64,000 nucleotides of DNA from an uncultured Rhizobium sp. GTDB lineage: Bacteria > Pseudomonadota > Alphaproteobacteria > Rickettsiales > UBA1997. The translations under genes were made by a program, and so were the position numbers. Location of the stretch: assembly GCA_964447395.1 (NCBI GenBank), contig CAYUSO010000006.1, positions 10,154 to 74,153 of the forward strand, read 5' to 3'. Shown here piece after piece: positions 50,951 to 54,009 of the stretch; positions within the stretch are counted from its first letter, which is position 1, and each line of letters begins with the position of its first letter. The notes beneath the pieces were generated by a model. That model saw only the letters and a list, made by a program, of their open reading frames with translations, ran no database searches and was not told where the DNA came from.

Positions 50951-52495
50951 ATGTTTTCTGAAAAAAATATCGTCGTCACCATTGGAAATTATGGCGCCGT
51001 TATTGCTTTGCACGAAGGTAGCGAAATCAAAAATAAAATTTTTTTAGAAGAATTAACTGACGATAGCAAAAAACAAATTCAGGATGTTTTTTTAAAAAAT
51101 AAATCCGCGCCGATTTATGTCTTGTTAGACACTGTTGATCAAAGCTATAAAAAGAAAATTTACCCCTCAGTTCGCAAAGCCGATTTATCGCGCATCATAA
51201 AACGCGATTTAGTGAATGACGGCGATAAAGACAGCATCAAAAACTACATCATTTTAAACAACAAAAAGACCAGCGTAAAAAAATCTGCGAATCGTTGGGA
51301 ATGCTTGTTTATTTCATCATCAAGCTCGGAAGTAATCGACAAGTGGATCGCGTTTTTATTGGAAATGCCGAATCACTTAATCGGAATTTACATGTTGCCA
51401 ATCGAGACTTTCAACATGTTCAGGCTGTTCAAAGACAAAATTAAATCTCAGTCAAAAATTCAAAATAAACAAAACGATCTCTATTGCTTCGTTATTCAAA
51501 ATAAAGTCAGCGGAACCAGGCAAATTGTGTTTTCAGATCAAGGCATCGTTTTTACCCGCGTAGTAAATTATAACTTCGATCAAGCGGATTTTTTGGAGAA
51601 ATATGAGCAAGATATTTACAGCACTTTTGAATATCTGAAACGTCTTTTTCCTGATTTGGCAATAGGCGAGCTCGATATCGTAAATATCTTTTCCAACGAA
51701 GCTTTGGAAAATTTGAAGAAAATCAACAACATCGAATTGAATTTGATAAATCACACGCCAAATGAAGTGGCGTCATCGATTGGATACGCGAATCTCTTGC
51801 CGCAAAATAGCAATTTTTGCGATTTATTAATCTCCAAAACTTTTTCGAAAGAGAAAAAAATTTTAAAATTCACTACACCAAAAATTACTTTTTTAGAAAA
51901 ATTTATTCTCACTCTGAAGGCTTCTTACTACATCAACCTTCTTTTGATTGTCATGATTTGCGCCACCGCCTTGTTCACCATTCTTTCACAGGATAAAATC
52001 GCAGAGTTGATCGACGCCGCAGAAACTGAAAAATTTATCGCGGTGCAACAAATGGCACGACTGAAAAAAAATGCCTTCGAAGGCTCTAAAATCAGCGAAA
52101 CCGATGAAACCACCAGCATCGAAAGAATTATGGATTTCGGCAAAATGGAGGAATTTTTCACAAGCTTTGGAGGAAATTTTGTCGATTTTTACATCAAGCT
52201 TAAATTTCTTAAAGAATTTGGCGTGAAGCTGAATCGCTTCTCTTACGCCATTCCAAACTACAACAGTAAGCTGCCGGCAAAGGTAAATTATGAAATCGTC
52301 TTTGGCGGAGAAATAATCAACAAAAGTGGCGATATCGAAGATCTATTTAAAGAATTCGACACTTTAGTGACTGAGGTAAAAAAGAATTTGGATGGCTCTC
52401 AAATCAAGTATATCGATCTTCCGCGCACTATCGACTTTAACAAAAAATATTACGATTTTCCCATCGAATTTACCGCTACCGCAAAAACGCAATGA
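50951..52495 (+). CDS. bitopic protein, candidate PilM/PilN-fusion or GspL-like assembly-platform component
   Basis: 514 aa. About 320 aa of predicted cytoplasmic domain, one TM helix (YYINLLLIVMICATALFTILS), then about 165 aa alpha/beta periplasmic domain. The architecture suggests PilM+PilN/GspL; no sequence motif was verified. Confidence 0.4.
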   Translation: MFSEKNIVVTIGNYGAVIALHEGSEIKNKIFLEELTDDSKKQIQDVFLKNKSAPIYVLLDTVDQSYKKKIYPSVRKADLSRIIKRDLVNDGDKDSIKNYIILNNKKTSVKKSANRWECLFISSSSSEVIDKWIAFLLEMPNHLIGIYMLPIETFNMFRLFKDKIKSQSKIQNKQNDLYCFVIQNKVSGTRQIVFSDQGIVFTRVVNYNFDQADFLEKYEQDIYSTFEYLKRLFPDLAIGELDIVNIFSNEALENLKKINNIELNLINHTPNEVASSIGYANLLPQNSNFCDLLISKTFSKEKKILKFTTPKITFLEKFILTLKASYYINLLLIVMICATALFTILSQDKIAELIDAAETEKFIAVQQMARLKKNAFEGSKISETDETTSIERIMDFGKMEEFFTSFGGNFVDFYIKLKFLKEFGVKLNRFSYAIPNYNSKLPAKVNYEIVFGGEIINKSGDIEDLFKEFDTLVTEVKKNLDGSQIKYIDLPRTIDFNKKYYDFPIEFTATAKTQ

Positions 52496-53169
52496 GAATC
52501 ATCGATTTAAGAAAAAAGATCATCGTAAACTTTTCTGCTTCTGGCGCTTTATTGCTGATTGTTGGCGTTATTTTTGGCTTTTATTTGAAGGAAAAAAGTG
52601 GCGTAGAATCGAAGATTGAAAAAATTAAAAGCGAAACTTCAGCCTTAAAAAACCAAGCTAGCGAGTTTGAAAGCAAAACCACCGAGGTAAAAAAATACAG
52701 AGAGCTTTGGGAAAATTTAACCCCGAATAAAAAAATCACCTCTGGCATCAAAATGGATGATGTTAACACCAAACTGGCCACAATCGCCGATAAATACACG
52801 ATATCCGATCCCGCCATTAAAGTGACAATGCCAGAAGTTTTGAAGGATGGAATTTTTAAGCGCGATACGGTTAGCGTCCTTTTTACAACGGTTAACTTAA
52901 CCTTTAGTGCCGTTAACGACGTCAAAGCTTTGCTTTTCATCAGTGAGTTTCTTGAATCTTTACAGGGCTATCCGGTTGTGACAAATTTAGAAATTCGCAA
53001 AGCAAAAAATTATACTTCGCAAGATTTTGTCAGCATTAGTTCAGGGAAATTTTCTGGAGCCATTAGCGGAAAAGTCGATTTTTCATGGTACGCTTACAAG
53101 GATGATGAAAAAAAATCTGATGAGGTTAAGCCTACAGCCGCAACAAATCCGGAAGCTACAAAACAATAA
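52492..53169 (+). CDS. bitopic protein, candidate PilO/GspM-like
   Basis: 225 aa, with an ATGA overlap with the previous gene. A short N-tail, a TM helix (ASGALLLIVGVIFGFYL), a coiled coil and a ferredoxin-like C-domain pattern (VNLTFSAVNDVKALLFISEFLESLQGYPVVTNLEI). Confidence 0.4.
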   Translation: MRIIDLRKKIIVNFSASGALLLIVGVIFGFYLKEKSGVESKIEKIKSETSALKNQASEFESKTTEVKKYRELWENLTPNKKITSGIKMDDVNTKLATIADKYTISDPAIKVTMPEVLKDGIFKRDTVSVLFTTVNLTFSAVNDVKALLFISEFLESLQGYPVVTNLEIRKAKNYTSQDFVSISSGKFSGAISGKVDFSWYAYKDDEKKSDEVKPTAATNPEATKQ

Positions 53170-53172
53170 GAA

Positions 53173-54009
53173 ATGAAGCGAAACCAAATTTATAAGATCA
53201 CATTTTTATTGCTTAGCTTGCTCTTGCCATCGCATCTTCTTGCTCAAAATACTGATAATTTTTCTGAAAAAAATTTGCCCGACAATTCTCCCAAAGCGCC
53301 AAATAAAAATGAAAAATCTGAGGTTAAAGCGAGCGATTTAATACCAGCTACGAATCAAATAAAAAATTCTCTCGAATCAATCCTGCTCAATAAAAAAGCC
53401 ACTTCCTTGATGTTTGATGATGAGCAAAATGACAATATCGATCGCGCCATTGAGTCGCTAAAAAATAATCAGCTTTTTATTCCGGAAGATGGTTTGAAAA
53501 ATGGTGATTCAGATAAAAATTTAACCGAGGAAGAGAAAAAGAAAAAAGCTGAAGAGGCGAAAAACAAAGAGGATGAGAAAAAATCCGAAGAAAATGAAAA
53601 ATCCTACATCTATCTCGCATCCATAATTTACTTCACTCCGAGTGATTGGGTTTTATGGATTAATGATCAAAAAATCACCTCGGAAACCAATGGCAAAAAC
53701 AAAGAGATCTACGTGAAAGCGATAAAAAGAGATAGCGCAAAACTCCTGTGGAGGATGAGTGTCAGTAAGTGGAAAATTCTCTCCGGTCGCCAATCTGAGG
53801 AATTTGCTCCAAAAATTAACAAGGATAATCAAGTAGAAGTTGAGTTCGAGTTACATCCAAATCAAACCTTCATTCTTAGCACTGCGAATGTGGTCGAAGG
53901 TCGTGCTGTTATTGCTTTGCTGAAAAAAAGAGAAGAAGAAAAAAAGGCAAAAGCTGCGGAAGCTGCAAAAGGGATAAGAAAAACCAGCGATGAGAAACCA
54001 ACTCAATAA
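53173..54009 (+). CDS. secreted protein with K/E-rich linker and beta-rich C-domain, candidate PilP/GspC-HR-like
   Basis: 278 aa. Signal peptide ITFLLLSLLLPSHLLA, a charged low-complexity tract (EEEKKKKAEEAKNKEDEKKSEENEK), and a C-terminal beta domain (IYLASIIYFTPSDWVLWINDQKI...). Confidence 0.35.
   Translation: MKRNQIYKITFLLLSLLLPSHLLAQNTDNFSEKNLPDNSPKAPNKNEKSEVKASDLIPATNQIKNSLESILLNKKATSLMFDDEQNDNIDRAIESLKNNQLFIPEDGLKNGDSDKNLTEEEKKKKAEEAKNKEDEKKSEENEKSYIYLASIIYFTPSDWVLWINDQKITSETNGKNKEIYVKAIKRDSAKLLWRMSVSKWKILSGRQSEEFAPKINKDNQVEVEFELHPNQTFILSTANVVEGRAVIALLKKREEEKKAKAAEAAKGIRKTSDEKPTQ

Follow-up and report, generated by a model that had tools for sequence, protein, structure and literature searches.

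The closest described counterparts of the locus reported here are the PilM-PilN-PilO-PilP proteins of type IV pili in Pseudomonas, Neisseria, Myxococcus, and Thermus, the GspL/PulL-GspM-GspC proteins of type II secretion systems (T2SS), and the MshI-MshJ-MshK proteins of the mannose-sensitive hemagglutinin (MSHA) pilus, whose secretin is MshL. Of these, MshI is a fusion protein of the PilM/PilN type, and MshJ is a member of the T2SSM_b family; a search of the literature on the homology of MshI, MshJ, and MshK returned nothing useful. In published work (PMC10191384), PulL is regarded as PilM fused to PilN, PilP is said to connect PilQ with PilMNO, and PilT is described as lost from both the T2SS and MSHA. 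Here, we analyzed a 64,000-nt stretch (the window) of contig CAYUSO010000006.1 from an uncultured member of the Rickettsiales (assembly GCA_964447395.1; 1.54 Mb in 29 contigs, 96% complete), which carries three consecutive genes, g1, g2, and g3 (the triad). The triad likely encodes the subcomplex that serves alignment and assembly at the inner membrane in a type IV pilus machine; this machine has PilT, and its remaining genes are dispersed. We regard this reading as the most likely one, with high confidence for g1, moderately high confidence for g2, and moderate confidence for g3.

Type IV pili have been inferred to be ancestral in Rickettsiales and proposed to serve in host-cell attachment (PMC9352585, PMC10847448). 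Surveys of the order list pilA, pilB, pilC, pilD, and a secretin annotated as mshL, with no PilM, PilN, PilO, or PilP for this system (PMC9352585); in KEGG, 90% of the secretin cluster of Rickettsiales carries the annotation mshL (PMC9352585 supplement). The sole trace of such proteins is a pair of unannotated clusters, ~8% of whose members trip the T4P_pilN profile (PMC9352585, supplementary file 18). The genes g1, g2, and g3 are unmentioned in the text or supplements of PMC10847448.

Linkage of the triad to pilB and pilC in relatives

According to the list of open reading frames (ORFs), the triad lies on the plus strand and comprises g1 (50951..52495; 514 amino acids [aa]), encoding a fused PilM-like/PilN-like protein of GspL-type architecture, g2 (52492..53169; 225 aa), encoding a PilN/PilO-like bitopic protein, and g3 (53173..54009; 278 aa), encoding a candidate periplasmic connector that resembles PilP or the HR domain of GspC. 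An ATGA is common to the g1 stop and the g2 start, and three bases separate the g2 stop from the g3 start. The coupled three-gene operon described in a first-pass annotation of this DNA was thus recovered with the same ORFs and the same overlap. Homologues, which the source databases label "hypothetical," numbered more than 216 for g1 (49 to 72% identity) and 232 for g3, whereas the g2 profile retrieved 811 cluster representatives (50% identity) at an E value of ≤1e-3 from a library of 1.8 billion proteins. Spurious or chance ORFs were ruled out by the size and conservation of all three families.

Gene context is the strongest and decisive evidence for a pilus role. Profile searches for g1, PilB, and the secretin in 61 genomes of the same order, representing 39 or more families, found them in 48, 47, and 51 genomes, respectively. 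In 26 of the 61 genomes (18 families), pilB and a g1 homologue share a strand, with g1 no more than 3.5 kb downstream, and each of the eight such loci that were opened showed the order pilB-pilC-g1-g2-g3, the last three homologues being confirmed by hmmsearch with profiles of the window's own families. The four loci inspected in full encode PilB of 612 to 692 aa, PilC of 400 to 401 aa, and homologues of g1, g2, and g3 of 511 to 569, 222 to 234, and 312 to 595 aa, respectively. In these four loci, g3 is directly followed by an ABC ATPase gene (L055:9988-10758 of genome G038, with equivalents in L049, L051, and L052), and a TPR gene, pilT, and pilU accompany the pilus cluster. Pfam recognized T2SSE plus MshEN in the PilB proteins of the relatives and T2SSF in PilC, and nothing in the three middle genes.

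The association extends beyond the order. Homologues of g1 were detected in 12 of ~199 other alphaproteobacterial genomes, nearly all from different families, and directly followed pilC in all four loci fetched (four families). A g2 homologue came next in three of these (L094 to L096), and the stretch fetched for the fourth, L097, yielded no g2 match.

Across the 61 genomes of the order, pilB and g1 were both present in 44 and both missing from 10, with pilB only in 3 and g1 only in 4. One of the latter (G041) reflects an assembly break, as pilC-g1 and a fragment of pilB lie at a contig end; the corrected counts are 45 genomes with both and 3 with g1 only. The genomes are related and not independent, and these counts carry no P value. 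The contiguous pilB-pilC-g1-g2-g3 cluster is ancestral, kept by the relatives and dispersed in the window's own family. It thereby lends direct support to the earlier suggestion of a scattered type IV filament machine in this genome, for which conservation of the triad in related genomes had been proposed as a check.

Architecture of the three proteins

Hydropathy predicted a single transmembrane (TM) segment in g1 at about residues 322 to 350. The AlphaFold2 model (predicted local distance difference test [pLDDT] score, 82.3) consists of an actin-like alpha/beta cytoplasmic domain (residues 1 to 305), a long helix (310 to 376) in which the TM segment lies (TM helix at about 325 to 346), and a periplasmic domain (390 to 511) with the order alpha-alpha-beta-beta-alpha-beta-beta, i.e., two alpha-beta-beta units. 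Model and hydropathy thus agree with the domain layout read from the sequence at first pass. In Foldseek searches of the Protein Data Bank (PDB), the top matches of the model were PilM structures (3jc8_Ma of Myxococcus xanthus, E = 1.5e-8; 2ych_A of Thermus thermophilus and 5eou_A of Pseudomonas aeruginosa, both 1.9e-8), followed by FtsA (3.3e-8). The cytoplasmic domains of GspL/EpsL (4pht_Y and 1yf5) had E values of ~1e-6 and the highest target-normalized TM-score (0.60), and sugar kinases and other ASKHA enzymes ranked below all of these. The structural likeness to PilM and GspL on which the first reading had been staked was therefore found for g1. Its actin-like (ASKHA) fold is closest to PilM and FtsA, and its arrangement, a PilM-like domain, one TM helix, and a ferredoxin-like periplasmic domain, is that of GspL/PulL. 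It is not a separate cytoplasmic PilM, since the TM helix joins the actin-like part to the periplasmic domain. Sequence models of T2SSL/GspL (Pfam, NCBIfam) and of PilM_2 (PF11104, E ≤ 10) did not match g1. Judging from the model, g1 is most likely a single-chain equivalent of PilM plus PilN with GspL/PulL architecture.

The g2 protein has one TM segment (about residues 9 to 34 by hydropathy; TM at about 13 to 32) behind a short N-tail, as the earlier description had it, followed by a probable coiled coil (about 35 to 80) and a putative C-terminal alpha/beta domain. The tail is basic and cytoplasmic and carries the conserved motif LRKKII.NF. Hydropathy, N-tail, and profile comparison together indicate a bitopic, N-in protein with a coiled coil and an alpha-beta-beta type domain. 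We compared it by hhalign with PilN, PilO, and PilP reference alignments drawn from 30 canonical loci (PilN from 24 pilMNOPQ loci; PilP with 27 sequences). The 67-sequence g2 alignment matched PilN with a probability of 81.9% (E = 1.1e-5) over 93 collinear columns, which run from the coiled coil through the initial alpha-beta-beta-alpha of the domain. This match was stronger than that between PilN and PilO themselves in the same setup (P = 6.6e-5); g2 against PilO reached P = 0.005, and the reversed-reference controls P ≥ 0.035. The comparison with T2SSM_b was marginal, at P = 0.09 and then, with a more diverse alignment, P = 0.007. Triads that lie next to T2SSM_b genes (alignments A4 to A6, with 6 to 7 sequences each) gave no significant profile match to g1 or g3, and g2 showed no signal against the periplasmic part of g1 beyond the TM helix. 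None of the PilN and PilO (PF05137 and PF04350), T2SSM, or T2SSM_b sequence models matched g2.

Three metagenomic proteins of 599 to 658 aa (P0401, P0402, and P0409) carry a full g2-like C terminus behind an N-terminal part of ~400 to 450 aa that has no Pfam match; in P0409, this part shows no similarity to g1. They may represent a different fusion partner for a PilN/O-like module. A Pfam scan of these three proteins and of the most distant listed g2 relatives revealed no bridging family.

The g3 protein starts with a signal peptide of the type I signal peptidase kind, which ends in ...LLA|Q ([F/I/L]A|Q in family members), and continues with a conserved N-proximal motif (SLMFDDE), a K/E-rich linker, a beta domain (143 to 243; pLDDT of ~90 in the AlphaFold2 model), and a C-terminal helix. 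Signal peptide, linker, and beta-rich C-terminal domain had all been noted before, and hydropathy and the model bear them out. The cleavable-type signal is shared by g3 homologues of other families (seven proteins) and by two ORFs of reduced genomes that are candidates for the third gene, and in none of these or in g3 was a PDZ or other Pfam domain found. Hence, g3 has neither the N-terminal TM anchor nor the C-terminal PDZ domain or coiled coil of GspC. PilP and GspC-HR domains nonetheless account for 5 of the 22 top Foldseek entries, all of them nonsignificant and with root mean square deviations of 3.9 to 5.1 Å: 3oss_C (GspC HR), 3jc8_Pa, 2lc4, 4av2_M, and 2y4x_A (PilP), at ranks 3, 4, 6, 8, and 22. 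To our knowledge, the PDB holds only about a dozen PilP/GspC-HR chains, so this enrichment, as an informal comparison, is unlikely to be due to chance. On the basis of gene order, topology, and this nonsignificant enrichment, g3 is a candidate secreted, nonlipidated counterpart of PilP or of the GspC HR domain. The PilM/N-PilO-PilP-like or GspL-M-C-like architecture proposed by the first-pass annotation thus holds for the fold of g1 and the PilN-like profile of g2, and for g3 it goes as far as these three lines of evidence do.

Several results weigh against assigning the triad to a pilus machine. Searches of g1, g2, and g3 against Pfam and NCBIfam at E ≤ 10 returned only noise (coiled-coil noise for g2), and family alignments A1, A2, A3, and A7 found no match, or again coiled-coil noise only, among PDB sequence profiles; that the genes belong to no recognizable sequence family had been stated from the outset. 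The periplasmic domain of g1 gave nothing significant against PilN or PilO profiles by hhalign. Judging from alignment invariants and the model, Thr10 and an Asn appear to occupy the phosphate-loop positions of g1 where actin-like ATPases have Asp, which suggests a noncatalytic scaffold like GspL. The similarity of g2 to PilN disappeared when the globular part was used alone and needs the coiled-coil stretch; it is therefore supportive, not conclusive. Unlike the lipoprotein PilP, g3 has no lipobox and no Cys at the end of its signal. Its model had no significant match among 350,542 PDB chains (best E = 0.41), and its C-terminal domain reached only P = 0.14 against the PilP alignment by hhalign, even with homologues of other families added and other alignment modes. 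Finally, three genomes of the order (G046, G054, and G080) have pilB and a secretin but no g1 that our profile could find, and the g1 homologues of pilus-less genomes, described below, belong on the same side.

The mismatch of the triad with every database family and the lack of statistical significance for g3 could also mean that these are fast-evolving, lineage-specific ORFs with no defined role in a machine, whose likenesses (an ASKHA fold, a coiled coil, a small beta domain) are generic. This is extremely improbable, given that the families are large and conserved, that gene order is strict, and that PilM, FtsA, and GspL head the fold list of g1, ahead of sugar kinases and other ASKHA enzymes.

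Pilus parts in the same genome and comparison with described machines

The genome encodes a secretin, PilB, PilC, the prepilin peptidase PilD, PilT, VirB11, and candidate pilins, so that all parts whose presence had been proposed as a check were found. The secretin, pilin, pilB, and pilC genes lie on contigs other than that of the triad, as expected from the earlier remark that none is adjacent. The gene for the retraction ATPase, pilT (14189-15217, minus strand; Pfam T2SSE, E = 2.7e-52), is in the window itself, 35.7 kb from the triad (36 kb in the first estimate), and its product is 54% identical to PilT of the G038 pilus cluster. The single secretin (520 aa) has MshL (TIGR02519) as its best NCBIfam match (E = 3.8e-57; 193.5 bits, below the 250.2 cutoff) and GspD as the second. 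The PilB/GspE-type ATPase (590 aa) scores almost equally as PilB and as GspE in NCBIfam and carries an MshE-type N-terminal cyclic di-GMP-binding motif (38.7 bits; cutoff, 38), and the best NCBIfam match of PilC is GspF.

A pattern search for prepilin-type N termini retrieved 14 candidate pilin ORFs of about 230 to 345 aa over nine contigs. These N termini mostly read K-(K)-A|FSLIELSIVILIIG, in which Phe is preceded by Ala instead of Gly, and one of them was confirmed by TIGR02532. The finding matches the reported expansion of pilA, up to 57 copies, in some Rickettsiales lineages (PMC9352585, supplementary file 18). The candidates include C1:152344-153219, C2:89993-90862, C3:68497-69198, C4:24854-25711 and 25721-26569 (in tandem), C5:3718-4626 and 38403-39281, C7:20027-20983 and 73515-74549, C8:87495-88430 and 88550-89416, C17:14519-15307, and C20:2069-2962.

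Models of PilN (PF05137) and PilO (PF04350) did not match anything in this genome, and canonical PilO was likewise unmatched in the ~40 alphaproteobacterial genomes of a phylum-wide draw of 200. The PilP model (PF04351) found no match either, a negative of little weight since it found none in the control genomes. Secretin, PilB, PilC, PilD, PilT, and pilins being present and the PilN, PilO, and PilP models unmatched, the genome has every core part except a recognizable alignment subcomplex. The sole matches of PilM_2 (PF11104) were an ORF of 414 aa and one of 351 aa, taken by size only to be FtsA and MreB. An FtsA-like or divisome role for g1 was rejected in view of the linkage to pilB-pilC and of this separate 414-aa ORF, taken as FtsA on account of its size.

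Alternatively, the triad might be the GspL-GspM-GspC platform of a T2SS-like machine that would build a short periplasmic pseudopilus and export proteins, with no surface pilus. We regard this as unlikely. It would account for the fused GspL architecture of g1, with GspL cytoplasmic domains among its best fold matches and GspL/EpsL giving the highest target-normalized TM-scores, for the order of a small bitopic coiled-coil partner (g2) and a periplasmic connector with a small beta domain (g3), and for the GspF-like PilC, the PilB/GspE-like ATPase, and the second rank of GspD for the secretin. However, T2SSL, T2SSM, and T2SSC models are unmatched by the triad, the marginal T2SSM_b signal being the only exception, and g3 has a cleavable signal peptide instead of a TM anchor and no PDZ domain. 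Moreover, pilT is kept in the genome and in the conserved clusters, with pilU in relatives, whereas T2SS and MSHA are described as PilT-less (PMC10191384), and the candidate pilins are long, form 14 paralogues, and are not a GspG-K set.

The PilMNOP module shares with the triad the order of an actin-like part, a bitopic coiled-coil protein, and a periplasmic beta-domain protein; PilM provides the best folds for g1, g2 aligns with PilN (82% when rounded), and PilT is present. It differs in that PilM and PilN are fused here, so that three genes stand in place of four, in that the triad lies behind pilB-pilC and not in front of a secretin gene, and in that g3 is no lipoprotein and the PilM_2, PilN, PilO, and PilP families of Pfam are unmatched. 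The MshL-like secretin and the MshE-type motif of the ATPase recall MSHA, although the secretin scores below the MshL cutoff and PilT is present. The system is thus a hybrid, which combines traits of type IVa pili (PilT, pilU in relatives, and long pilins), of the T2SS (a fused L-type protein and a GspF-like PilC), and of MSHA (an MshL-like secretin and the MshE-type motif).

If the triad serves a type IV pilus as its alignment subcomplex, the contacts among the proteins, and what g3 does, can all be proposed by analogy with PilMNOP and GspLMC (PMC10191384). The actin-like cytoplasmic domain of g1 would dock the extension ATPase PilB, the platform protein PilC, or both, and its periplasmic domain would form a heterodimer with g2, held together by the coiled coil and by the alpha/beta domains. 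A further contact may join the basic N-tail (LRKKII.NF) of g2 to the actin-like domain of g1, as is the case for the N terminus of PilN and PilM. The conserved N-proximal segment of g3 would bind the periplasmic g1/g2 dimer, and its beta domain the N-terminal domain of the MshL-like secretin. Such contacts from g1/g2 through g3 to the secretin would tie the machine's inner-membrane parts to those in the outer membrane.

Genes near the triad and near the dispersed pilus genes were also recorded. The triad is flanked by putative acpS (ORF 50457-50924) and ruvC (ORF 54003-54476) genes, both on the minus strand and identified by eye from N-terminal motifs. The acpS ORF as listed starts at a GTG (50924), and the typical AcpS N terminus (MILGVGIDLV) appears 17 codons further in, near 50873, so that the divergent acpS/g1 spacer is probably ~77 bp (50873-50950), not 26 bp. 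A scan for promoters and terminators performed no better than on shuffled sequence and revealed no convincing sigma-70-type promoter in this spacer. Immediately upstream of pilT, a gene on the minus strand (15214..16086) encodes a 290-aa protein with a signal-like N terminus, which shares 32% identity with the G038 cluster's TPR protein (blastp E = 3e-22); Pfam TPR matches were obtained on the G038 and G036 proteins. In other families (L049, L052, and L055), TPR-pilT(-pilU) is likewise found beside the pilus cluster, and the TPR protein could be a pilotin or a PilF/MshN-like secretin helper. An orthologue of the ABC transporter ATPase that follows g3 in relatives (52% identity) stands alone at C3:28079-28792, and the secretin gene is followed by genes for a polytopic membrane protein of 253 aa and another protein of 251 aa (C4:123441-124954). 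Together they may point to an ABC system tied to the pilus, reminiscent of PilGHI in Myxococcus.

Retention of g1 and g2 in pilus-less genomes

Three complete genomes (G043, G077, and G056) have no pilB, pilC, or secretin yet carry a g1 homologue; their only T2SSE-family matches above the cutoff are VirB11 sized. In G043 (L088:5242-7396) and G056 (L087:4841-6965), g1 is intact (496 to 501 aa) and directly followed by g2. G043 and G077 belong to one genus, which looks Orientia-like, its single-contig genomes measuring 1.9 to 2.0 Mb, with a GC content of about 31% and numerous insertion sequences, and G056 is a single contig of 1.27 Mb. An intact g1-g2 pair in genomes devoid of pilus genes means that the pair can survive loss of the pilus, perhaps with a second function there or as a relic that has not yet decayed. 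That the pair is not only a pilus scaffold and, after loss of pilB, pilC, the secretin, and pilins, is kept for a different envelope function in the Orientia-like genus and one other reduced family is a rather doubtful possibility.

Another reduced genome (G055) carries g1 and g2 homologues at L089:4474-7083. In both L089 and L087, a short ORF of 171 or 195 aa comes third, behind the pair. The one in L089 contains a stretch (DSMFFSKDE) that resembles the SLMFDDE motif of g3, and it was not detected by the g3 profile.

The retained g1 homologues could be taken to mean, more broadly, that g1 and g2 belong to an envelope complex, which may or may not include g3 and is not mainly devoted to pilus assembly, be it the scaffold of another trans-envelope machine or an organizer of the cell envelope, with a secondary linkage to pilB and pilC. 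FtsA nearly equals PilM as a fold match of g1, and PilMNOP-type proteins are reported to have been co-opted by flagella in another bacterium (PMC10823254). Nevertheless, the pilB-pilC-g1-g2-g3 linkage spans at least 18 families, with pilC-g1 adjacency reaching beyond the order, the presence or absence of g1 closely tracks that of pilB, and the genome would otherwise be devoid of any alignment subcomplex; it also has the 414-aa PilM_2-matching ORF, assigned to FtsA by size only. We thus consider an envelope complex of this kind improbable and favor the alignment subcomplex of a type IV pilus.

In summary, the novelty of the triad lies in sequence families that are undescribed and in a hybrid architecture, whereas its function is an expected one. 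Published Rickettsiales inventories leave the alignment subcomplex unaccounted for, and assignment of the triad, if true, completes the parts list. It would also define a distinct type of alphaproteobacterial machine, which combines a T2SS-like PilM-PilN fusion with PilT, and provide three new models for annotation pipelines (MacSyFinder, Pfam, and NCBIfam). That intracellular lineages devoid of pili retain g1-g2 is an oddity both concrete and testable; should a different function underlie it, a PilMN/PilO-type module would have outlived its own machine in obligate intracellular bacteria, possibly to organize another trans-envelope machine.

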